32,000 nt of DNA from Nanoarchaeum equitans Kin4-M (lineage in GTDB: Archaea; Nanobdellota; Nanobdellia; Nanobdellales; Nanoarchaeaceae): positions 180,001 through 212,000 of the forward strand of contig AE017199.1 in the NCBI GenBank assembly GCA_000008085.1, written 5' to 3'. A model generated the notes under the pieces. The model did no database searches. It was not told where the DNA came from and was given only the letters and a program-made list of their open reading frames with translations. This document shows positions 9,419 through 21,522 of the stretch, in pieces. The position numbers were made by a program, and so were the translations under genes. Each line of letters opens with the position of its first letter. Positions within the stretch are counted from its first letter, which is position 1.

Positions 9419-9835
9419 ATGGTTTTAAAAGTAGTAGATAGCTCTTATGCTATTAGAGCAGATTTTATTCCAAAGGATTCGGTAACAGTTAAAGAAGCAA
9501 TAAAAGAGATACAAAAATTCGATAAAGAAAAAGCCTATAGCTTAATTGCTTTAGAACCTAAAAAAGAATATATAGATTTGGTAAAGCAAAATATAAAAGG
9601 GGAAAAATTATCGAAAACAGATATTAAATTATTGGCTTTGGCTAAACAATTAAATGCCATATTATTAACCGATGACACTGATATGCAAAGTGTGGCTTTA
9701 AGATTGGGAATAAAAGTTAAAGGCTATAGAATTACAATAGAAAAACCGAAGAAAAAAAGATATAGATGTCCCAATTGTGGAAGGTTTTATAACAAACCTT
9801 ATTGCCCTATTTGTGGTCTTCGATTAAACCAATAA
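9419..9835 (+). CDS. nob1: Nob1-like endonuclease (PIN domain + C-terminal zinc ribbon), 16S rRNA 3'-end maturation
   Basis: VVDSSYAI (PIN acidic 1), LSKTDIKLLALAKQLNAILLTDDTDMQSVALRLGIKV (PIN acidic 3/4), then CPNCGRFYNKPYCPICG. Confidence 0.7.
   Translation: MVLKVVDSSYAIRADFIPKDSVTVKEAIKEIQKFDKEKAYSLIALEPKKEYIDLVKQNIKGEKLSKTDIKLLALAKQLNAILLTDDTDMQSVALRLGIKVKGYRITIEKPKKKRYRCPNCGRFYNKPYCPICGLRLNQ
9423..9430 (-). promoter_or_regulatory. TATA-like box for proS, embedded in nob1 codons
   Basis: Palindromic TTTTAAAA, 19 nt upstream of the ATG at 9403. It lies inside nob1 codons 2-4. Confidence 0.4.
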
Positions 9836-11306
9836 AGAAGTTTTTACTCTCTCTAACTCTAAATCCTAATTTTTCTATTTGGTCTTTACATTTTACTCCT
9901 ACGGCATAGTTTTTATTGTATAAAACAACACAATCCAGATCTATTAATTTTTTTATTAGCTTTATTAGATCACTTAGTTCTAGGCTATCGCTCACTTTTA
10001 TTATGTATTCGCCATTATTTATTTTCTCTTGTATTAGCCTAAAGTAATCTTTTAATAGAGAATCATATTTCTTTTCCATTGCTTTCCAATTATCGAAAAA
10101 CTTCTTTACTGCTATGGGGGTATTATCGATATCGGTTTTAGTTATTTTGGATATTTCTTTTAATATTTTGTCCCTTTTAATGATTTCCTTTACCGCTTGG
10201 TTTCCAGTAGTTAAGTATATTCTTATAGTATTATCGCTAATCTTTTTTGATGCCAATATTTTTATATAGCCAACTTGTATTGTATTATCTAAATGGGTTC
10301 CAGAACATGCTTCAACATCTAAATCTTCTATCTCAACTATTCTTAATATTTTCTCTGGGACTACTCCTCCTTGGTATATTCTAAAACCAAACCTCTTCTC
10401 TGCTTCGTTTTTAGGTAAGAAATATTTTTTGATCGGTCTCATTTCCATTACTATTTTGTTTGCTTCCTTTTCTAATAGCTCTAACTCTTCGTCAGATAAA
10501 TTCTTATAATGGGTTAAATCTATTGTAGCATATTCGTATTTTTTCTCAGCCCCCGCTTGCCAAATGTGTTCGCCGAACAATTTTCTTGCTATCCCTGTAA
10601 TTATATGAACCGCAGTGTGGTTGCGAGATAGTTGTAACCTTCTATCAAAATCTATTAATAATACGGGGTTTTCTATTTTCTTTAGTTTCTCTATATCATC
10701 AACTTTATGTAAAATTACTTTGCCCTTCTTTATTACATCTATAACTCTAACAAAGACTATTTCTTCTTTTTTGTATTGGTAGTCTTTATAATATTCATAA
10801 ACATCCTTATAAAATGGTATATTATATTTAGAATATTGGCCCGTTTTGTACAAATATACTAAGGAATCTCTATCTATTATATAACCGGTATCGTGCTCTT
10901 GTCCCCCCATAGTTGGATAAAAAACGGTTTTATCGAATATCGCATAATCTTTCTCTATTCCCAATAGATTTGCTTCGCAAAATTTTAAGAAAGTATCTTT
11001 CCAAAATAGAAACTCTGTAGGTTTATATTTAGAAACATCGATGTCTATTTCTTTTTTATGCTTTTCCGCTTTAGATTTTTGTCTATGTTTTTCTAATAAT
11101 TCATAGAACTTTTCTGGAATATGATCAACAATTAGATCGGGAGTTATCCCTTTAGAGATATATAGTTCAAACAAAACCTTTGCTTTTTCTTCATCGCTTA
11201 AGTTTTTAATTTTTTCCCTTGTTTTTTCTATAAGGGGTTTAAATTGCTTTTCAGTTTGTTTATATTTCTTATATTCCTCTAATATTATTTCATTGATTGG
11301 TATCAT
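9807..11306 (-). CDS. alaS: Alanyl-tRNA synthetase, C-terminal half only (split gene: end of tRNA-recognition region + editing + C-terminal domain)
   Basis: LFELYISKGITPDLIVDHIPEKFYELLEKH; the editing-domain zinc motifs HTAVHIITGIARK and EACSGTHL. No class II catalytic motifs are anywhere in the ORF or upstream of it. Confidence 0.9.
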   Translation of the reverse strand: MIPINEIILEEYKKYKQTEKQFKPLIEKTREKIKNLSDEEKAKVLFELYISKGITPDLIVDHIPEKFYELLEKHRQKSKAEKHKKEIDIDVSKYKPTEFLFWKDTFLKFCEANLLGIEKDYAIFDKTVFYPTMGGQEHDTGYIIDRDSLVYLYKTGQYSKYNIPFYKDVYEYYKDYQYKKEEIVFVRVIDVIKKGKVILHKVDDIEKLKKIENPVLLIDFDRRLQLSRNHTAVHIITGIARKLFGEHIWQAGAEKKYEYATIDLTHYKNLSDEELELLEKEANKIVMEMRPIKKYFLPKNEAEKRFGFRIYQGGVVPEKILRIVEIEDLDVEACSGTHLDNTIQVGYIKILASKKISDNTIRIYLTTGNQAVKEIIKRDKILKEISKITKTDIDNTPIAVKKFFDNWKAMEKKYDSLLKDYFRLIQEKINNGEYIIKVSDSLELSDLIKLIKKLIDLDCVVLYNKNYAVGVKCKDQIEKLGFRVRESKNFFIGLIEDHK

Positions 11307-11865: not shown

Positions 11866-12147
11866 ATGGCTATCAAAATTTATATGTTAGAAATTGTGGT
11901 ATTGGGAGTAGGATTACTATTTTTAGTTTGGTATTTGGTTTGGATTTCTAATAAACAAGCCGAATGGTATATGCGTTATAATAAAATTTCGACTTTTTAC
12001 CAAGAGCTAACATTGTATGTTTTATTTATTACAATTAGTTATTTTATTTTTATACATATACCACATATACAAAAATTTGTTGTTGGAATGATTAGCCTAT
12101 TGGTATCTAGCTATATACTAAAAAAAGTTATCGAATCAATCGCTTAA
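11866..12147 (+). CDS. Small hypothetical membrane protein (about 3 TM)
   Basis: It has hydrophobic segments LEIVVLGVGLLFLVWYLVWI, LTLYVLFITISYFIFI and FVVGMISLLVSSYIL. It lies only 9 nt from the divergent HIT gene, and its own promoter is weak. The start may instead be the ATG at 11884. Confidence 0.35.
   Translation: MAIKIYMLEIVVLGVGLLFLVWYLVWISNKQAEWYMRYNKISTFYQELTLYVLFITISYFIFIHIPHIQKFVVGMISLLVSSYILKKVIESIA
11877..11884 (-). promoter_or_regulatory. TATA-like box for the HIT/alaS-C unit
   Basis: The minus strand reads TATAAATT, 20 nt upstream of the ATG at 11856. Confidence 0.4.
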
Positions 12148-13333
12148 TTAGATATAGTAAGGGCAATACCAATAACAAATAAATCCAATTGTTGTTTTTC
12201 TCTTTCTTTTCTTGTTTTGGAATTATTATTTGGCCCTCTTTTTTATATTGGTTTCCGAGCCAGTCTTGGTAATAGATTGTATAATTGTATTTACCCGGTT
12301 TTAGATTAAAATATGCTGTATCATAATCATTGGGATCAATTTCTCCAATAAAATAGGATTTATCTGCTATTGTAACATAAACACCCTTTAGTTTATATGG
12401 ATTAGGATTCCCAATGGTTATTTCTAAATTTTTATCTAAATTAGTGCTAACAACGATTTTAGGCTTTTCATTTATTATAACATAAGAGCTATACTCGGTT
12501 TTGTATTTTTTATTGTCTTTCTCATACTCTATAACAAATTTTATTGGATATTTGCCATAACTATTAGAGAATACATCAAAATCTATTATGGCACTACCAT
12601 CTAAAAAAGGCAAATAATATGGGTTAGGCGATACCGATATGTTAGATACAGCATAAATTTTTATGTTAGTTATTTTATTGTAAGAGAGCAATTTTAATGA
12701 AATTTTGCCTTTCTTATTAATGGTTTTTGGCTCGTAATAAACTAATAAATATGGCTTTTCCTCAGAAAGTTTTAGAATTTTATGAAACGTTTTGTTTATA
12801 TCTATTATTGATTTGGCTCTCAAAGTTATGTTTAAATAACAATCTTTGTCAGCATAGAGTTTAATGGTATATTCGTTTTTGTTTAAAACCAAAGGAGAGC
12901 TAACATTTAAGGGACATCCCTCTATATATAAATAACCATTCCTTAGATTTAGGTTAGAGTTAATTTTTATTTTTATGGTATTCCAGCCATATTTTATTAT
13001 ATTAGGGCTAACATCTATAGAAATTTTATCCAAGGGGAAAACAAAAATTGGTAAGTGCAATTCTTCATCGTTCAAATTTATTATAATTTCGTTATAACCC
13101 TCTTTTTTAGCTTTCCCTTTTAGATATAAAGTGAACTCTTCGCTAGGTTTTAATAGTTCTATTGTTTTAGAATAATTTATTTCTAATCCTTCGCTACGGG
13201 CTTTTACATCTAAATCTGTATAGGTTTTGTTTTTGTCATTCAATATAGTTATATAGAATAAAGGTTCGTCCCCAATAGTAATATTGGAAGGTATCGTTTT
13301 TATCGATTTAATTAAAAAGGCATAGGCGAGCAT
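12128..13333 (-). CDS. Membrane-anchored protein with repeated beta-sandwich (CARDB / COG1361 S-layer-domain-like) modules
   Basis: Repeated pattern of the type LEITIGNPNPYKLKGVYVTIADKSYFIGEIDPNDYDTAYFNLKPGKYNYTIYYQDWLGNQY. It has a C-terminal TM anchor WIYLLLVLPLLYLIKRLIR. It is the last gene of the S27e-atpK unit. Confidence 0.4.
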   Translation of the reverse strand: MLAYAFLIKSIKTIPSNITIGDEPLFYITILNDKNKTYTDLDVKARSEGLEINYSKTIELLKPSEEFTLYLKGKAKKEGYNEIIINLNDEELHLPIFVFPLDKISIDVSPNIIKYGWNTIKIKINSNLNLRNGYLYIEGCPLNVSSPLVLNKNEYTIKLYADKDCYLNITLRAKSIIDINKTFHKILKLSEEKPYLLVYYEPKTINKKGKISLKLLSYNKITNIKIYAVSNISVSPNPYYLPFLDGSAIIDFDVFSNSYGKYPIKFVIEYEKDNKKYKTEYSSYVIINEKPKIVVSTNLDKNLEITIGNPNPYKLKGVYVTIADKSYFIGEIDPNDYDTAYFNLKPGKYNYTIYYQDWLGNQYKKEGQIIIPKQEKKEKNNNWIYLLLVLPLLYLIKRLIR

Positions 13334-13334
13334 T

Positions 13335-14009
13335 TTATAATTGTTTAGTTTTCTTTAAATGCTCTATATATTTTTCATTAATCAAAGCGGAAAGTTTTGT
13401 TGTTTCTACTTCTAAAGCTAATGGGAATCCAATGAATGGCTTATCATTATAAAATGGGTAAGCCATAAATCTTTTAGCATCTTTTTCCATTTCATCAATA
13501 ATATTTGTTGGGTTACCTTGCTCTATTGATTCTACATATTTATATAATTCTTTATAATAGGGGTAAACCTTTTGAGCTATGCTTTTTAGTAAAGCTAATT
13601 CCATATCTTTTTTGTTTTCTCTATAAAAGGGTAGCCTTTTTATTATAGATGGGTCTTTTTTGTATTGTTCTATGAAATACCTATTAAAGTATTTGGTGGG
13701 TATTAAATAATTTGGATCTGCATTAATGTTATATAAATCCAAAAACATAAACATTCCTTCTAAAAAGGGAACAAGCTTTTTTGGATAAATTTTCATTAGC
13801 TCGAAAAATGTATTAGCTTCTCTTAACCTTAAAGAATACTCTATTTTTAGTATATTGTTAAAATCTGCTGGTTTTAGTATTGTTAAATAGCCGTATTTGT
13901 TTAACACTCTTAACAGCCCTATATAATCCAAATCTTTTAATTTATCCAAATTGTGTAATAATAGCGAACCGTATTTTGTTTTTATTTTTGTATAGCTATA
14001 GATTCGCAT
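13335..14009 (-). CDS. Candidate truncated A/V-type ATP synthase subunit C (d-like)
   Basis: Three collinear motifs recalled from subunit C/d: YSYTKIKTKYGSLLL (aa 4-18) versus (F/Y)AYxNARVRxxxGxLL; DLYNINA (aa 91-97) versus DLHNLQA; LALEVETTKL (aa 197-206) versus LALEVDAENL. It sits two genes downstream of atpK, where atpC lies in the canonical operon. At 224 aa it is only about two thirds of normal length. Confidence 0.5.
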   Translation of the reverse strand: MRIYSYTKIKTKYGSLLLHNLDKLKDLDYIGLLRVLNKYGYLTILKPADFNNILKIEYSLRLREANTFFELMKIYPKKLVPFLEGMFMFLDLYNINADPNYLIPTKYFNRYFIEQYKKDPSIIKRLPFYRENKKDMELALLKSIAQKVYPYYKELYKYVESIEQGNPTNIIDEMEKDAKRFMAYPFYNDKPFIGFPLALEVETTKLSALINEKYIEHLKKTKQL

Positions 14010-14268
14010 GTTTCCATTTTTCTAATATAAGCTTCTCCCTTCTCTTTAGAAATTCCAATGATTCCTTTCTATTTTTGACTATTTCTTTTTCTATTTGGGC
14101 TTTTTTTAGTATTCTTTCTCTTTCTTCTAAAGCTTTTTTCAAATATTCTTCTAAAATTTGTTCTTTTTTCTCTAATGCCTCTCTTATTTTTTTGAAATAT
14201 ATTTTTCTTGCCAAGCTAACTATTTCTTTTTCTATTAAATCACTATTATCTATAATAATTTTATACAA
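13996..14268 (-). CDS. Short coiled-coil protein, candidate peripheral-stalk (subunit E/H-like) remnant
   Basis: 90 aa, almost entirely K/E/L/I heptad-like sequence (EKKEQILEEYLKKALEERERILKKAQIEKEIVKNRKESLEFLKRREKLILE). It overlaps the atpK stop by 8 nt and the next ORF by 14 nt. Its position corresponds to atpE. Confidence 0.35.
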   Translation of the reverse strand: MYKIIIDNSDLIEKEIVSLARKIYFKKIREALEKKEQILEEYLKKALEERERILKKAQIEKEIVKNRKESLEFLKRREKLILEKWKHANL

Positions 14269-14470
14269 TTTTAGAAAGCAATAGGTAAGCTATCACTAAA
14301 CCATAAATAGCTTGTGTTTCAGGCAATGCTGCAAATATTAGCATTTTACCAAATAGATCAGGTTTCTCTGATGTGGCTGCCGCAGCAGCAGATGCGGCTA
14401 GGCCCTGGGCTATTGCAGAGCCAAAAGCAGCTAACCCTATAGCCAATGCAGAGGCTAACGCTAGATCCAT
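14261..14470 (-). CDS. atpK: A-type ATP synthase proteolipid subunit K (c)
   Basis: 69-aa two-helix hairpin: ALAIGLAAFGSAIAQGLAASAAAAA ... FAALPETQAIYGLVIAYLL, with the ion-binding Glu in helix 2. Confidence 0.9.
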   Translation of the reverse strand: MDLALASALAIGLAAFGSAIAQGLAASAAAAATSEKPDLFGKMLIFAALPETQAIYGLVIAYLLLSKIV

Positions 14471-14491
14471 TTAGTTAATATAAAAAATGTT

Positions 14492-14992
14492 TTAAGAACC
14501 TTTAGTTATAAAATAGGCTATTCCTACCATTATACCTAATGTGACTAAAACTGATATTATTTGAAATATTGGGGTTAGATCTATGCTAATCCCATTCGAT
14601 GGGGCTGGTAAAAAGTAAATTATTATTAACAATGCTGCTAATCCCAATAAAACATAACCGACTTTTTTGTCTAACCAAACTTCGTTCTCTTTAACGGTAT
14701 TAGATAAAATAACACCTACTGCTGCCATACCAAATAAAGCGAAAATGCTAACCAAAACGAAATCCGGTAAATATATTTTTAACATATGCACAGCGCTTTT
14801 AGCTGCAGCAAAAATAAAACCAACAGACAAACTAATCAAAGATATTCTCGCCCTAACATCGTCATTAGCAGGATCGCCTAATATTTTGGTTTTGGCTAAA
14901 ATCGAATACATAATAGCATAAACCAAAATAACTGGTATAACTACATCAACAAACCCTATATTTATTAGATAATCAAAAGCTTGTCTAAACAT
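14492..14992 (-). CDS. Hypothetical integral membrane protein (4-5 TM)
   Basis: Hydrophobic helices VDVVIPVILVYAIMYSIL, ISLISLSVGFIFAAA, FVLVSIFALFGMAAVGVIL, VGYVLLGLAALLIIIYFL and IISVLVTLGIMVGIAYFI. Its start overlaps the S27e stop. It lies directly upstream of atpK. Confidence 0.5.
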   Translation of the reverse strand: MFRQAFDYLINIGFVDVVIPVILVYAIMYSILAKTKILGDPANDDVRARISLISLSVGFIFAAAKSAVHMLKIYLPDFVLVSIFALFGMAAVGVILSNTVKENEVWLDKKVGYVLLGLAALLIIIYFLPAPSNGISIDLTPIFQIISVLVTLGIMVGIAYFITKGS

Positions 14993-15189
14993 TATTCATA
15001 TATTTCAACTATTTCTCCGAATATTTGGGCCTTTCCCCCTGTGGGTTTGGCCAATATATTACCACATTTGTGGCATTTTACAATTGTTGAAGCCCTATCA
15101 AATATTATTTGCTCGTTACCGCATTTACATCTTACTTTTATAAACCTAGATCTTGGTTTGACAATATAGTCATTCACTTGCTTTACCAT
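14992..15189 (-). CDS. rps27e: 30S ribosomal protein S27e (eS27)
   Basis: PRSRFIKVRCKCGNEQIIFDRASTIVKCHKCGNILAKPTGGKA is the C4 zinc ribbon of S27e. Confidence 0.9.
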   Translation of the reverse strand: MVKQVNDYIVKPRSRFIKVRCKCGNEQIIFDRASTIVKCHKCGNILAKPTGGKAQIFGEIVEIYE

Positions 15190-15857: not shown

Positions 15858-17864
15858 ATGCGCAAGCTATTAAGCTTACCCCTAATAACATTTTTTGTAT
15901 TAGGTTTATCTGTAGGGGAATTGGTCCCAATAGGTAAAGGTAGAGGCGGAACCACTGTTACTATAGGACCACAAGACATAAAGCTCATTGGGGTATCAGC
16001 AAATCCAGAGAACAAGCCTGACTATACAGCTACATTAACTTTGTATATTACAATAGACGAAAATGTTTTTAGTAGTGCAGGTACATACAATGTAAAACTT
16101 AGGGGAACTAGTGAAAAGGTACAAGTAACAGTTACGGGCAAATCTCCAAACTTACAAATTAGTAATATAAATGACAAAAATAATGATTTGGCAACATATA
16201 TATACAAAAAAATAACAGAAGGTTTGCCACCAACCAATTATGTTAGGGTTGAATCTCCTGCTCTTGTTGGGAATAAGTATTATGAGATTAAGGTTAAACT
16301 ATTGCCGTTTAGTTCTTTGCCCCCTATTTTATGGTTGGTCACAACATCCGAAGCGGAAAGTAGGTATAATAGTATTTATAGTATTAGTGCCAAAGCTACA
16401 GCAAATGTTTTTACAACTTTTAACGAACAAGCAAGCATTAAAACGATAATTGCTTCTTTTAGTGAGGGGATGAACTTAATAGATATACGTTCTCAATTAT
16501 TTTCATTAAGCCTTGCGAAGTACATAACAAACTCTGTTAATGAGTGTTTTATAAGAGCATGGAAATCCCTGGGGTATGAACCAGCAGATAAACTATGCAA
16601 CAGAATTAATTCTGAAGCTTCTGCATTATTATCGAAATTTGGAATCAATTTGGATGCTGTTTACACATATGACACTGGTAGTGGGTCTTGCACTCTTACC
16701 AAAGATGCAAAAGCAGACGAAGAAGTAATGAGTGTTTTAGAAGGTATGGGTTTCAAACCCTCTTATAATACAATAGAAGAAATGGTTTTTCAATTAAAAA
16801 AGGGAGATAGATTTATTTGCTGGTTGGATAGCGTATTTGGAGCAATATTTGGGTCGACTTATTATTCAATCAAAGGCTTATTGCCCCAAAACATTACCAA
16901 TAGAGAGATGGTGGCATTGATTATTACATTATCTTTATGGGGTATGTTAGCTTATCTTGTTATAAAAAGGATAGGGCCAAGCGAAGAAAACAAAAACATT
17001 GGTATAAAACATTTCATAGGAGGTTTAGCTATATCATATTTATTATTAACTTTGCTAGGAAACAGCCTTTCAAGTATGTCTAGTGCACATATAATTGGAT
17101 CGATACTATTCTTGTTCTTTACCTACGAAATAGTTTCTTATATCGTGGCACTCATCTCACATCCCAGATTAGAAGCAATAGTATATTTAGTTCTATATGG
17201 TTTATATGTAATCGCCCTCTCCGTTTTCCTACGAACGATGGGTATTGTAGGAGGAGCATCCGAAGGTGTTTTTAACCCCACGAAAGCGATAGCGCTAAGC
17301 GCCGCAATGCCCTTTAGTGATATTATAGGTGGGATAGCAATACCTATAATATATCAAGCATTGTTAGGCTTCCAAGTTGGGTGGTTCCAAGCGATAGGGT
17401 GGGCATGGCTAATAACAAAAATTATTACTTACATAGCAGACTTGGTAGGAATAACTTTACCACCATTCTTAGATGTGTCAAAAAAACTAAAAGAAAAACT
17501 TGACAAAGATCTTGGCACATTTGAATGGCACAAGAGAGAGGGCAATGAAGTAGAAATTGCAAAGAGAGTTATAATGAATATCGCTTCACAATTAAGGGAT
17601 TTATGGACAAACATACATTGTAGCACTCTTGGGGCGAGAAAACTTTTGGGAAGAAAATTTAATCCGGTGCCATTAACGGGTGCACTATTATATGTTCTCA
17701 GCGATGAGGATAATAAGGCTCTCATACTCCAAAAAATACCTGATGAGGATCAAAAGAAAATAGTTGAGAATGTTTTAAACAACAAGTTAGAGGAACTGGC
17801 TAAGAGTCTAGCGAAAGATGATAAGTTTAGGTCATTACTCATGAACTACTGCAAAGATAGTTGA
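15858..17864 (+). CDS. Hypothetical membrane protein: signal peptide, ectodomain of about 330 aa, about 6 TM helices, cytoplasmic tail of about 130 aa
   Basis: MRKLLSLPLITFFVLGLSVG signal-like N-terminus and a Ser/Thr/Asn-rich, Lys-poor ectodomain with 4 Cys. TM cluster at aa 350-530. Local GC reaches 42-48% on spot-counted lines. Confidence 0.6.
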   Translation: MRKLLSLPLITFFVLGLSVGELVPIGKGRGGTTVTIGPQDIKLIGVSANPENKPDYTATLTLYITIDENVFSSAGTYNVKLRGTSEKVQVTVTGKSPNLQISNINDKNNDLATYIYKKITEGLPPTNYVRVESPALVGNKYYEIKVKLLPFSSLPPILWLVTTSEAESRYNSIYSISAKATANVFTTFNEQASIKTIIASFSEGMNLIDIRSQLFSLSLAKYITNSVNECFIRAWKSLGYEPADKLCNRINSEASALLSKFGINLDAVYTYDTGSGSCTLTKDAKADEEVMSVLEGMGFKPSYNTIEEMVFQLKKGDRFICWLDSVFGAIFGSTYYSIKGLLPQNITNREMVALIITLSLWGMLAYLVIKRIGPSEENKNIGIKHFIGGLAISYLLLTLLGNSLSSMSSAHIIGSILFLFFTYEIVSYIVALISHPRLEAIVYLVLYGLYVIALSVFLRTMGIVGGASEGVFNPTKAIALSAAMPFSDIIGGIAIPIIYQALLGFQVGWFQAIGWAWLITKIITYIADLVGITLPPFLDVSKKLKEKLDKDLGTFEWHKREGNEVEIAKRVIMNIASQLRDLWTNIHCSTLGARKLLGRKFNPVPLTGALLYVLSDEDNKALILQKIPDEDQKKIVENVLNNKLEELAKSLAKDDKFRSLLMNYCKDS

Positions 17865-17874
17865 TTTTTAATTA

Positions 17875-18699
17875 TCAAAAGCTTTCCAACAAAATTCTTC
17901 CAGCCAATTTATAGTCTTTCGCTTCAACCAAATCAAAGCCATAAATGTTTTCCAAAGAATAAATTATTCTCAAATAATGATGGGGCATTATTCCTAGGGG
18001 CTCTCTCCACACCCCTTTATCAATAAAAACATCGAAATCTAAACTTACATAGGGATTTTTGAATTTTTTTAGCTCTTGTATTACATTATCTAAATCGAAA
18101 AACACATCGATAGAATCGTAATACTTTATATTATAGCTATCTAAAAACTCTTTCTCATCTTTGGCCCAATTATTTATACCAACCAAAGCTATTTTATTAG
18201 GCTTAATAATACCTTCTTCTATTATATACCTAACCCAAGTGGCATAATTCAAATCGCCATAAAAACAATCCGGATGCGAATCGAATATAATTAATTCCCT
18301 AGGTTCTAAAGCTTTTATTATTGGATAACTAATTAGATGGTTCCCGCCTAAAGAATAAACCTTTTTACCTAGGCTTTTAAAATATAGAACGGTTTCATAT
18401 ATTTTATCTAAAGCCTTTGGTAATGGCATATCTAAATCTATATCGCCATGGTCATAAACTTTAGGCAACCTATTCCTTAATGGATAATATATTTCATCGA
18501 AAGATTCTCTAATTTTTTTAGGTATCTCTTTATAGCCTTTTTTGTCTGATCCTTCTTCTAATGGAAATCCAACTAAAACTATTTCTGCTTCTTCCAAAGT
18601 GGAATCGAATAATGGAACGAACATTTTAGTTTTAAACCCTCTATTATAAAAAATAAATGGAAAAAGATTTGTCCCCTTTAGGGATATATAGATTTTCAT
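17875..18699 (-). CDS. speB: Ureohydrolase-family protein (agmatinase/arginase fold)
   Basis: LGGNHLISYP (GGDHS-type), IIFDSHPD (DAHxD) and VSLDFDVFID (SxDxDxxD). All six Mn-ligand positions are present. The real start is probably M26 (ATG ending at 18624), which has TTTATAAT 18 nt upstream; the ATG at 18699 has no such box. Confidence 0.75.
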   Translation of the reverse strand: MKIYISLKGTNLFPFIFYNRGFKTKMFVPLFDSTLEEAEIVLVGFPLEEGSDKKGYKEIPKKIRESFDEIYYPLRNRLPKVYDHGDIDLDMPLPKALDKIYETVLYFKSLGKKVYSLGGNHLISYPIIKALEPRELIIFDSHPDCFYGDLNYATWVRYIIEEGIIKPNKIALVGINNWAKDEKEFLDSYNIKYYDSIDVFFDLDNVIQELKKFKNPYVSLDFDVFIDKGVWREPLGIMPHHYLRIIYSLENIYGFDLVEAKDYKLAGRILLESF

Positions 18700-18787
18700 T
18701 AGAAGATAGAAAAGGAATAGACCCTAAAACATTAGTATATTTCATAATAGGTTTGGTTATAGCCGATATAATAATATATAAATTGCT

Positions 18788-19201
18788 ATGATCGAAGAGG
18801 CGATACATTCTTACAATAACGCTGTATTCTATATAAGGTCTGCGCTATTAGATAAAAGAACAAAGGATACATTTATAGAAGGGTTAAAGAGATTGGCAAA
18901 AGCATATGAAGAAATATTTAGAGCTTTGTTATTGCTAAAAGATGTTGAACCCCCTAAAAATCCATATATAATGATGGAAAAAACCATAGAATTATATCCG
19001 GAATTAAAAGAGCATTACGAATTCTATAAAAAAATAAAAGAATGGTTATCCAAAGATATAAAAGCTGAAAATGAAGGGACTAGCAAATTTACTATATACA
19101 TAAATGGCACTACCTTATATTTAAAAGATATGCGCAAACTTTCTAAAGATTTAGAAATTTTGTTTGAGCGCTTTAAGAGATATTTAAATGCAATAGAATA
19201 A
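18788..19201 (+). CDS. Hypothetical all-helical protein
   Basis: 137-aa ORF, first gene of a tightly packed plus-strand unit (18788-21522). It has a vague HEPN-like helical-pair look but no Rx4-6H motif. Confidence 0.45.
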   Translation: MIEEAIHSYNNAVFYIRSALLDKRTKDTFIEGLKRLAKAYEEIFRALLLLKDVEPPKNPYIMMEKTIELYPELKEHYEFYKKIKEWLSKDIKAENEGTSKFTIYINGTTLYLKDMRKLSKDLEILFERFKRYLNAIE

Positions 19202-19208
19202 ATCGGTA

Positions 19209-19997
19209 ATGCCTATAGTAGTTGATAAACTAATAGAATATTTCGAAAAAGAGTTGGGTAAACCATTAAAGAACAAACGCTATTGGATAAATAAAGGGAA
19301 AGAGGGTGATACGGTTATTAGTTTGTATAAAGAAAAACCATTTATCTTAAAAAGAGTAAAATTTGAGGACTTTTATAAGTTTTTGTCTATAAGCTCTGCG
19401 ACCAAAATGAACAAATTTCTATTTGTGGGCAAAGTAATAGAAAAACCAACATATTATTTGGTTGATGTGAAAGGCATATTCGTATATGGAGTAAAAAAAG
19501 TTTACCAATGTTTAGGAAACCCAGAATTCAAAATAGAAGGAGAATTTTTAAAATACAAACTATATAGATTAGATAATAGGGAATATTTCTATATAGAGAA
19601 AAACTTAGAAATAATGCTTAACACCAATGGGTTAACCATAAACCAGGGCAAAGAGTTAAAACAAAGAATAAACATGGAAGAATATATTTATACTAAATCG
19701 ATAGACCCAAGAGAGGTTTTTTCGATAATAGATAGTATAATAAAAGAATTTGAACAAAAAGCTTTGTCTTTAGAATATGCAGCATTAACAAAAAAAGATT
19801 TGGCTTTTAGCATTAAAAGGGAATATAACGATTTAGTTTTTAGAGCGTGGTATTGCTCTAGAAAAAGTAACATACCAAAAATATGCGAAAACCCCTTGGC
19901 TTATAAACCAGAATTGGTTTATGAACAATATTACCAAGGGATGAAAAAATTAGAAATACTATTATTGCCTAAAGATATAGAAATAAAAGAGAAATGA
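19209..19997 (+). CDS. Hypothetical protein
   Basis: 262-aa ORF, 7 nt after the previous gene and overlapping the dph2 start by 4 nt. No recognisable motif. Confidence 0.45.
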   Translation: MPIVVDKLIEYFEKELGKPLKNKRYWINKGKEGDTVISLYKEKPFILKRVKFEDFYKFLSISSATKMNKFLFVGKVIEKPTYYLVDVKGIFVYGVKKVYQCLGNPEFKIEGEFLKYKLYRLDNREYFYIEKNLEIMLNTNGLTINQGKELKQRINMEEYIYTKSIDPREVFSIIDSIIKEFEQKALSLEYAALTKKDLAFSIKREYNDLVFRAWYCSRKSNIPKICENPLAYKPELVYEQYYQGMKKLEILLLPKDIEIKEK

Positions 19998-20884
19998 AAG
20001 TTTTTGTTCAATACCCAGAGGGGCTAAAAAATAAACTATTCGAAATAGAGCAAAAATTAAGAGAAAAAGGTTATAATCCAATATTTGATGCAGAACCAAC
20101 CTATGGGTTTTGTGATTTGAAAGATGATATAGCAATAGAGTTAGGTTGCGAAGCTATAATACATATAGGACATAACTCTTTCGGTTTTGAGCATTTGCTA
20201 AAAAATTCTAAAATCCCAATAATTATAGAGGAATATAGATACGAAATAGATGAAGAAGCTGTAAACGAGACATTAAAATATATAGATGTTATAAAGCATA
20301 AAAAATTGGGCATAGTTAGCTCTTTGCAATATTTGAATTATGTGTATTATTTGAAGGACAAACTAAAAGGTTTCGAAATAGTTATACCAAAGAACCCCCA
20401 AATATTGGGATGCAATGTAATTAATGCTAAATCCATAGAAAATAAAGTTGATGCTTTTTTAATTCCAACAGATGGCAAATTTTATAGCTTGGGATTAGCC
20501 TTACAAACGAACAAACCAGTATACGCTTTCGATCTAGGATTAAGAAAAATTTATAGCTTAGAAAAAGAAAAACAGAAATATTTAACAATAAAATGGTTTT
20601 ATTTATCCAAATTCGAAGAAGCAAAAAAAGTTGGTATCTTAGTTTCATGGAAAAAGGGCCAACTATTTTATAACCCATATGAAGTTAAGGAAAAAATAGA
20701 ATCGCTAGGGAAAAAAGCTATTATTTTAGCTTTCGATGAAATAGATCCTAACAAAATAATTGGCTTAGATTTAGATTTTTATGTTAATTTGGCCTGTCCA
20801 AGAATTTTTGATAATTATAAAAAATTTGACAAACCCATATTGAATTGGGTAGACATTTTTAAACATTATTTTGTTAAAAGCTAA
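19994..20884 (+). CDS. dph2: Diphthamide synthesis protein Dph2 (radical-SAM-type ACP transferase)
   Basis: VFVQYPEGLK, PTYGFCDL....AIIHIGHNSF, PQILGCNV, DGKFYSLGLAL and VNLACPRI. All three Fe-S Cys positions are present. Confidence 0.85.
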   Translation: MKVFVQYPEGLKNKLFEIEQKLREKGYNPIFDAEPTYGFCDLKDDIAIELGCEAIIHIGHNSFGFEHLLKNSKIPIIIEEYRYEIDEEAVNETLKYIDVIKHKKLGIVSSLQYLNYVYYLKDKLKGFEIVIPKNPQILGCNVINAKSIENKVDAFLIPTDGKFYSLGLALQTNKPVYAFDLGLRKIYSLEKEKQKYLTIKWFYLSKFEEAKKVGILVSWKKGQLFYNPYEVKEKIESLGKKAIILAFDEIDPNKIIGLDLDFYVNLACPRIFDNYKKFDKPILNWVDIFKHYFVKS

Positions 20885-21118
20885 ATGCCAGCCCATAGCT
20901 GGGAAAAAATGCTAAAACAAAGTGGGCATAAACATGGTAAACTATTAAAAATATTAAAACATAATAAACCTAAAGAAAGAAAATTTGGCAAAGGCGCTAG
21001 GAGATGCGAAAGGTGTGGTAGATACGATGGTATAATAAGAAGGTATGGACTATATTTATGCAAAGACTGCTTTAAAGAAGTGGCACACGAATTAGGATTC
21101 TTTAAATGGGGAGAATAG
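20885..21118 (+). CDS. rps14: 30S ribosomal protein S14 (uS14, zinc type)
   Basis: [46 protein letters not shown]. It has an N-terminal extension of about 20 aa, so an internal start at M9 is possible. Confidence 0.9.
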
Positions 21119-21522
21119 ATAGCATAGACATAAAAATTTTATCTATTTTAGAGGAAAACGCTAGGACAAAATTTACTGATATAGCTAAAACATTAAACCT
21201 TACAGAGGCAGCAATTAGAAAAAGAATAAAGAAACTGGAAGAAAACCAAATAATAAAACGCTATTCTATAGATATAGACTATAAAAAATTAGGATACAAC
21301 ATGGCAATCATTGGCTTAGACATAGATATGGATTATTTCCCAAAAATAATAAAGGAATTGGAAAAAAGGAAAGAGTTTTTGCATATATATTCATCTGCAG
21401 GCGACCATGATATAATGGTTATAGCAATATACAAAGATTTAGAGGAAATTTATAATTATTTGAAAAACTTAAAAGGAGTAAAAAGGGTTTGCCCAGCAAT
21501 AATTATAGATCAAATTAAATAA
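21106..21522 (+). CDS. lrp: Lrp/AsnC-family transcriptional regulator
   Basis: [47 protein letters not shown] (HTH) plus a RAM-like C-terminal domain. Confidence 0.9.

Follow-up and report, generated by a model that had tools for sequence, protein, structure and literature searches.

Candidate subunits C and E encoded beside atpK in Nanoarchaeum equitans and its vent relatives

In A-type ATP synthases, subunit C (subunit d in eukaryotes; Pfam AC39) caps the c-ring, serving as the socket through which the central stalk is joined to it, and accommodates the foot of subunit D, and the C-terminal globular domain of subunit E binds subunit B. The ATP synthase of Nanoarchaeum equitans has been described as consisting of five kinds of subunits only, namely A, B, D, a and c. 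This enzyme has been called incomplete, minimal or short of several subunits (PMC3149612, PMC3655853, PMC4935971, PMC6349945, PMC10656485). The analysis presented here concerns a stretch of 32,000 nucleotides of N. equitans Kin4-M (contig AE017199.1, positions 180,001 to 212,000), referred to as the window, and in particular the proteolipid gene atpK (NEQ217) and the two unnamed genes that follow it, NEQ216 and NEQ215. An earlier interpretation made from the nucleotide sequence alone, the sequence-only reading, had placed these two genes in the positions of atpE and atpC. Its canonical gene order is borne out by 63 archaeal operons that were retrieved by means of an atpK profile, in which the stretch K-E-C-F-A-B-D is seen. 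It appears probable that atpK, NEQ216 and NEQ215 constitute a conserved and translationally coupled A-type ATP synthase module, which N. equitans shares with its relatives from vents, with a trimmed subunit C and a headless E-type helix. Compared with the published five-subunit enzyme, which is from the same organism and includes the same atpK, two candidate subunits are thus added. Both belong to known subunit classes as unusual truncated variants, and they extend a known machine rather than define a new kind of system.

The three genes lie in a run of six open reading frames (ORFs) on the minus strand, from 15189 down to 12128 (Table 1). Their packing is as tight as the sequence-only reading had described: proceeding from NEQ219 to NEQ214, the ORF coordinates give a 1-nt overlap, a 21-nt gap, an 8-nt overlap between atpK and NEQ216, a 14-nt overlap between NEQ216 and NEQ215, and a 1-nt gap. 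A homologue look-up identified the 224-aa ORF as NEQ215 at 100% identity and the 90-aa ORF as NEQ216. The assignment of NEQ217 as the c/K proteolipid was likewise confirmed by its Pfam match; it is a single-hairpin protein with the ion-binding motif PETQAIYG, contained in ALPETQAIYG, and all ligands for Na+ have been reported to be present in it (PMC2359735).

Homologues of NEQ215 were recovered from vent metagenomes and from one metagenome-assembled genome (MAG). Exhaustive HMMER searches yielded P0003 (269 aa, E-value 1e-27), P0004 (277 aa, E-value 1e-19) and P0005, which is a fragment; searching with a profile revealed P0006 (281 aa) as well, and P0013 and P0014 were obtained by cluster look-up. 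Their identity to NEQ215 is about 40%, and two internal deletions distinguish NEQ215 from them. Other approaches were unproductive: a word-indexed homologue search with NEQ215 and NEQ216 recovered the queries alone, C-like profile scans of genome contigs and metagenome contigs found no relatives, and a plasmid tblastn for annotated V-ATPase operons returned nothing useful. When synteny was compared, the trio of atpK, a gene for 90-94 aa and a gene for 224-281 aa was found in the MAG (L001), in a vent metagenome (L003) and in further metagenomes (L085/L086), with the genes overlapping or nearly abutting throughout. The four neighbourhoods, that of N. equitans included, are otherwise different, and the trio is their only constant. 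Its order equals the canonical K-E-C order, the NEQ216 family occupying the E slot in every lineage and the NEQ215 family the C slot. NEQ217 is 77-78% identical to the atpK products of L001 and L003.

For NEQ215, homology to subunit C (PF01992) is strongly supported by sequence comparison. Three motifs to which the sequence-only reading had drawn attention, YSYTKIKTKYGSLLL at residues 4-18, DLYNINA at 91-97 and LALEVETTKL at 197-206, are each placed by profile-profile alignment on a conserved motif of canonical C (aYpNAriRA..., Di..iK and KE.EirNL). The canonical set comprised 63 extracted proteins, including 32 non-redundant ones, all 32 of which match PF01992 (best E-value 1.8e-80). Aligned by hhalign with 32 to 63 canonical C proteins, the NEQ215 family of four sequences reached a probability of 96.9-97.2%, E-values of 1.6e-10 to 4.2e-11 and scores of 77-81. 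The alignment extends over 255 collinear columns, joining positions 7-263 of the family to positions 48-370 of the 391 in the template, with an identity of about 13% in the aligned columns. Scores in the controls were far lower, amounting to 17.2 for the reversed family, 11.5-19.9 for 22 column shuffles and 14.4 for an alignment of the family with subunit E. In the window, the hidden Markov model (HMM) of canonical C ranked NEQ215 first among 132 six-frame ORFs (E-value 5.4e-4), and among 118 ORFs of the relatives the three C-like ORFs came at the top (E-values 1.2e-8, 3.9e-7 and 1.1e-3). The matches are reciprocal, as the NEQ215-family HMM detected bona fide C subunits in unrelated metagenomic K-E-C-F operons (E-values 3.8e-9, 1.8e-6 and 1.3e-5). 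The C-like character proposed by the sequence-only reading thus stands. The second-best matches of the C and I HMMs in the window, ribosomal protein P1 (895-1203, minus strand) and an Lrp/AsnC-type regulator (21106-21522, plus strand), were identified by eye from their sequences and are regarded as noise.

It might be supposed that this likeness arose by chance, both proteins being helical and lysine-rich and the genome AT-rich. Such an explanation could draw on the absence of any match above a curated threshold. NEQ215 alone has no Pfam or NCBIfam match up to an E-value of 10 and no sequence match in the PDB, and a plain hmmsearch of the PDB with the four-sequence family profile found no C/d chain. 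P0004 matches PF01992 with an E-value of 1.4e-5 and 25.1 bits, below the cut-off of 29, P0003 and P0006 do not match this family, and its curated threshold is accordingly reached by none of these three proteins nor by NEQ215. The best structural match, described below, has an E-value of 1.6. On the other hand, no shuffled or reversed control scored above 20, the 255 collinear columns include all three signature motifs, the matches are found in both directions, and the position of the gene provides independent support. A chance match is therefore considered very improbable.

The shortening of NEQ215 can be described in terms of the repeats of canonical C. Canonical archaeal C proteins contain three homologous repeats of about 115 aa (columns ~40-160, 161-275 and 276-387), which align pairwise in hhalign with probabilities of 98.7-99.7%. 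In the C proteins of the L005-L084 operons, each repeat is closed by a helix of the D/E-x-x-N-L-K/R type. In contrast to canonical C, with 320-395 aa, three clear repeats and scores above the Pfam gathering threshold, NEQ215 has 224 aa, repeats 2 and 3 are partial, and its score lies below that threshold. About 38 and 37 columns are missing from these two repeats (Table 1), and the estimate of a two-thirds-length protein in the sequence-only reading was thus accurate. The longer relatives (269-281 aa) retain part of what NEQ215 has lost. NEQ215 is collinear with A/V-type subunit C (Thermus thermophilus, 1R5Z/1V9M; eukaryotic d) from the N-terminal 'Y.NA+.+A' to the C-terminal 'E.E..L', it is predicted to be all-helical like C/d, and its gene stands two positions after atpK, as in the 63 canonical operons.

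Using the alignment of four sequences, AlphaFold2 produced an all-helical model of NEQ215 with 13 helices, a mean predicted local distance difference test (pLDDT) value of 91.9 and a predicted TM-score (pTM) of 0.89; the prediction from the single sequence had a pLDDT of 43 and was unusable. In a Foldseek search of the PDB, the model had no significant match. Its best match was subunit d of the yeast V-ATPase (8eau_d; TM-score 0.41, E-value 1.6, 202 columns, not significant), another subunit d chain, 6o7u_d, followed at a TM-score of 0.40, and all remaining PDB matches had TM-scores of 0.24 or less. The all-helical fold and the top rank of subunit d speak for homology to C, but the similarity does not reach significance. 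As NEQ215 is devoid of the DIxNLK helix, which is conserved in repeat 2 of C, the funnel may not be closed.

For NEQ216, the K/E/L/I-rich coil noted in the sequence-only reading is confirmed by its composition, as K, E, L and I make up 64% of the residues and 72% when R is included. Orthologues of 91-94 aa are located directly 3' of atpK in L001, L003 and L085/L086 and share an invariant C-terminal motif, NR...L..RE..ILEKW. The NEQ216 family of four sequences was aligned by hhalign with 63 canonical E proteins at a score of 57.3 (probability 96.3%, E-value 1.6e-9); the reversed query and the reversed template scored 34.8 and 33.8, respectively, and heptad-preserving shuffles at most 17. The alignment comprises 87 columns, pairing positions 6-92 of the query with positions 15-108 of the 224 in E, which correspond to the N-terminal helix only. 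NEQ216 ends where the globular domain of E would begin, and as the alignment stops at E column 108 of 224, the C-terminal globular domain of E is not present in it. Searches with canonical E and H HMMs ranked the 90-94-aa ORFs first both in the window (132 ORFs) and in the relatives (118 ORFs). Conversely, when 2,435 ORFs were searched with the NEQ216-family HMM, each of the 27 best non-self matches was an E or H subunit, and one orthologue bears the IMG label 'vacuolar-type H+-ATPase subunit H'. Like subunit E (PF01991; NCBIfam NF003049), NEQ216 is a long charged helix whose gene directly follows atpK; unlike E (~190-215 aa), it has only 90 aa and the B-binding globular domain is missing. It resembles H/G (TIGR02926, AhaH) in size, but its match to H is not above the coil background (35.3 against 31.2 for the reversed query, which are indistinguishable).

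The TTG start of NEQ216 falls within the final codons of atpK. TTG is also the start codon of the L085/L086 orthologue (L085 9729-10004), which has the same first residues, YK[IV][IV]IDNS, and this unusual start is thus conserved.

A rather unlikely alternative for this part of the module is that NEQ215 is indeed a C homologue and NEQ216 a generic charged coiled coil, which would resemble E/H because of its composition and its heptad periodicity. Direct HMM matches of the family provide some ground for this view. They are almost exclusively to stator families of rotary ATPases and to type III secretion relatives, and all those of NEQ216 (F-type b, V-type E and AhaH) are below threshold. The best sub-threshold scores are 25.6 bits for the L003 orthologue against NF003049 (cut-off 225) and 21.5 bits for NEQ216 against TIGR01144 (cut-off 65.5), and no member of the family exceeds the curated threshold for E (PF01991) or H (TIGR02926). 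The top Pfam matches of the family are a mix of unrelated coil families. Reversed sequences of the family match SctL, E, H and b at similar E-values and shuffled sequences match nothing, which suggests that the direct matches largely reflect charged-helix periodicity; the direct matches to E, H, b, FliH and SctL were discounted for this reason. A generic coil would not readily account for the E score, which exceeds those of the reversed controls, for an alignment that stops at the end of the E helix, for the selection of exactly the 90-94-aa ORFs by the E and H HMMs, or for a gene in the E slot in every lineage, and the C-terminal motif is not that of a simple coil. NEQ216 is therefore viewed, with moderate confidence and on the basis of sequence, as a stalk helix of the E/H class that lacks a head domain, is nearest to the N-terminal half of E and probably descends from E. 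The truncated, headless E/H-like coil that the sequence-only reading had envisaged is thus moderately supported.

These results also explain how both genes came to be overlooked, as standard searches give no matches or sub-threshold matches for them. The sequence-only reading had correctly held them to be missed because of their shortness and divergence, and in the proteome study of 2011 (PMC3149612) no arCOG was assigned to either of them. No mention of the locus tags NEQ215 and NEQ216 was found in the searchable literature, and as far as it could be searched neither protein has been recognized there as an ATPase subunit; annotation at the database level may already exist.

Both proteins are expressed. 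Shotgun proteomics detected NEQ215 with spectral counts of 23 and 73 and NEQ216 with counts of 0 and 36 (PMC3149612 supplement), and atpK and NEQ218 were undetected in the same experiments (PMC3149612 supplement). The main rival to an assembled module is that NEQ215 and NEQ216 descend from C and E but are relics or have been repurposed, and no longer assemble with A3B3-D; they might, for example, serve as a cap or plug of a free c-ring or decay together with an inactive enzyme. Both proteins are heavily truncated, as would be expected of relics, and ATP synthase has been wholly lost from the close relatives Nanopusillus and Nst1 (PMC3655853, PMC4935971). The N. equitans enzyme has never been shown to make or hydrolyse ATP (PMC4935971, PMC6349945), and a structural study of A3B3, as it is cited in these papers, suggests that it is inactive. 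These two points weigh against a working module, as do the sub-threshold matches of NEQ215 and its relatives, the coil background and missing H signal of NEQ216, and the possibly unclosed funnel. In addition, NEQ216 without the head of E and without a recognizable H partner has no known way to hold A3B3. No gene for a second stalk partner was found in the window with H, E and F HMMs or in the surroundings of atpK in the relatives, no search having been made in the remainder of the N. equitans genome, and the window contains no F-like or D-like ORF. The assembly of NEQ215 and NEQ216 into the complex, their docking geometry and the coupling of ion flow to ATP are inferred.

Against the relic view, four lineages retain the trio with intact frames and conserved overlaps, at an identity of about 40%, the structural model of NEQ215 is confident, NEQ215 and NEQ216 are expressed at levels similar to those of their neighbours, and decay would not be expected to keep the linkage to atpK in rearranged neighbourhoods. 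Simple decay in particular appears unlikely because of the conservation across four lineages and the expression of the proteins. Overall, relics or repurposed proteins are regarded as an unlikely explanation, and a conserved ATP synthase module is preferred.

Table 1. Features of the atpK locus of N. equitans, correspondence of NEQ215 to canonical subunit C, and neighbourhoods of the trio in relatives
Feature	Position or source	Strand	Template columns	Description
NEQ219	14992-15189	-		65 aa; ribosomal protein S27e
NEQ218	14492-14992	-		166 aa; multi-pass membrane protein upstream of atpK
NEQ217 (atpK)	14261-14470	-		69 aa; PF00137 ATP-synt_C, E-value 3.6e-23
NEQ216	13996-14268	-		90 aa; TTG start; unnamed; putative E-type N-terminal helix without head domain
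NEQ215	13335-14009	-		224 aa; unnamed; predicted divergent, shortened subunit C homologue
NEQ214	12128-13333	-		401 aa; predicted surface protein, C-terminal hydrophobic anchor
NEQ215, repeat 1	residues 4-96		48-147	nearly complete
NEQ215, repeat 2	residues 97-159		154-242	most (roughly first two-thirds), small deletions
NEQ215, repeat 2 end	absent		243-280 (~38 columns)	includes DIxNLK helix; kept in longer relatives
NEQ215, repeat 3 start	residues 160-169		281-290	
NEQ215, repeat 3 middle	absent		291-327 (~37 columns)	
NEQ215, repeat 3 end	residues 170-212		328-370	
L001	NCBI MAG GCA_054016815.1			YdjM (opposite strand), atpK 71 aa, coil 93 aa, C-like 277 aa, tRNA intron endonuclease
L003	vent metagenome			unrelated ORF, atpK 71 aa, coil 94 aa, C-like 281 aa, NEQ214-like ORF
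L085/L086	metagenomes			ribosomal L30, atpK 72 aa (L085) or 68 aa as called (L086), coil 91 aa, C-like 269 aa, methyltransferase (opposite strand)

The genes that flank the trio appear to be less closely tied to it. NEQ218 occupies the place of atpI, and the sequence-only reading was right to be cautious about it as subunit a. Its ORF overlaps the stop codon of the S27e gene by 1 nt. It has no family match in Pfam or NCBIfam, it is not among the top matches of the subunit I HMM to the ORFs of the window, and its hhalign probability against 69 canonical subunit I proteins is 0.5%; it was accordingly rejected as a fragment of subunit a. No counterpart adjoins atpK in L001, L003 or L085, and NEQ218 is a mere neighbour outside the conserved module. 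On the other side, NEQ214, assigned to arCOG2079 'S-layer domain' (PMC3149612 supplement), lies downstream of NEQ215 at a distance of 1 nt. In L003, the C-like gene is followed by a related ORF (1734-2225; BLASTP E-value 2e-7), whereas no such ORF is present at this place in L001 or L085. NEQ214 may belong to the unit as a surface protein partly linked to the ATPase trio, which is uncertain.

The 21-nt spacer between NEQ218 and atpK (14471-14491, minus strand), immediately before the ATG of atpK, reads AACATTTTTTATATTAACTAA and is TATA-like. In the relatives, atpK is preceded by an intergenic region of 29-247 nt, and because of these regions a separate promoter for the trio seems possible; the TATA-like stretch alone is not significant in an AT-rich genome. 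Antisense to NEQ215 and NEQ216 lies a 134-aa ORF rich in F, L and S (13880-14284, plus strand), which almost certainly is no gene, only a shadow cast by the K/E-rich coding strand. Elsewhere in the window, the 499-aa ORF at 9807-11306 (minus strand) corresponds to NEQ211, which codes for half of the split alanyl-tRNA synthetase; this enzyme is listed as NEQ211/NEQ547 and is a known split gene of N. equitans (PMC3655853). The TGT gene of L001 (419 aa) is unsplit, in contrast to that of N. equitans, and the contig L001 also encodes Cas2 and a Cas3-like helicase (15893-20011) within 6-10 kb of the ATPase trio.

If the conserved module does assemble, NEQ215 would still dock on the c-ring and couple subunit D (NEQ166) to it, completing a D-C-c rotor. 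NEQ216, perhaps homodimeric, would be attached to subunit a and provide the stator with a coiled coil. At least seven kinds of subunits (A, B, D, a, c, C-like and E-like) would then make up the enzyme, instead of five. A bolder reading, advanced here only tentatively and considered doubtful, is that N. equitans and the vent relatives run a coupled rotary A-type ATP synthase smaller than any other known, with a socket made of about two of the three C repeats and a headless, possibly homodimeric E-type stator. It is equally doubtful, as part of such a working, radically simplified design, that A3B3 is held in a manner unseen in solved A/V-ATPases and that the complex is no dead remnant.

For about 20 years, the N. 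equitans ATP synthase has been referred to as an incomplete enzyme that probably does not function (PMC3655853, PMC4935971, PMC6349945, PMC10656485). This view underlies the idea of a parasite unable to make its own ATP, and the enzyme serves as a model for 'minimal complexes' in DPANN archaea. The present findings reopen the question of whether it works, as the D-C-c rotor may be complete and a stator element may exist, and they name two proteins to be sought in native complexes. They also indicate that surveys relying on standard HMM thresholds count too few subunits when genomes are reduced and evolve fast. The trimmed C of N. equitans shows which parts of the three-repeat socket are dispensable.

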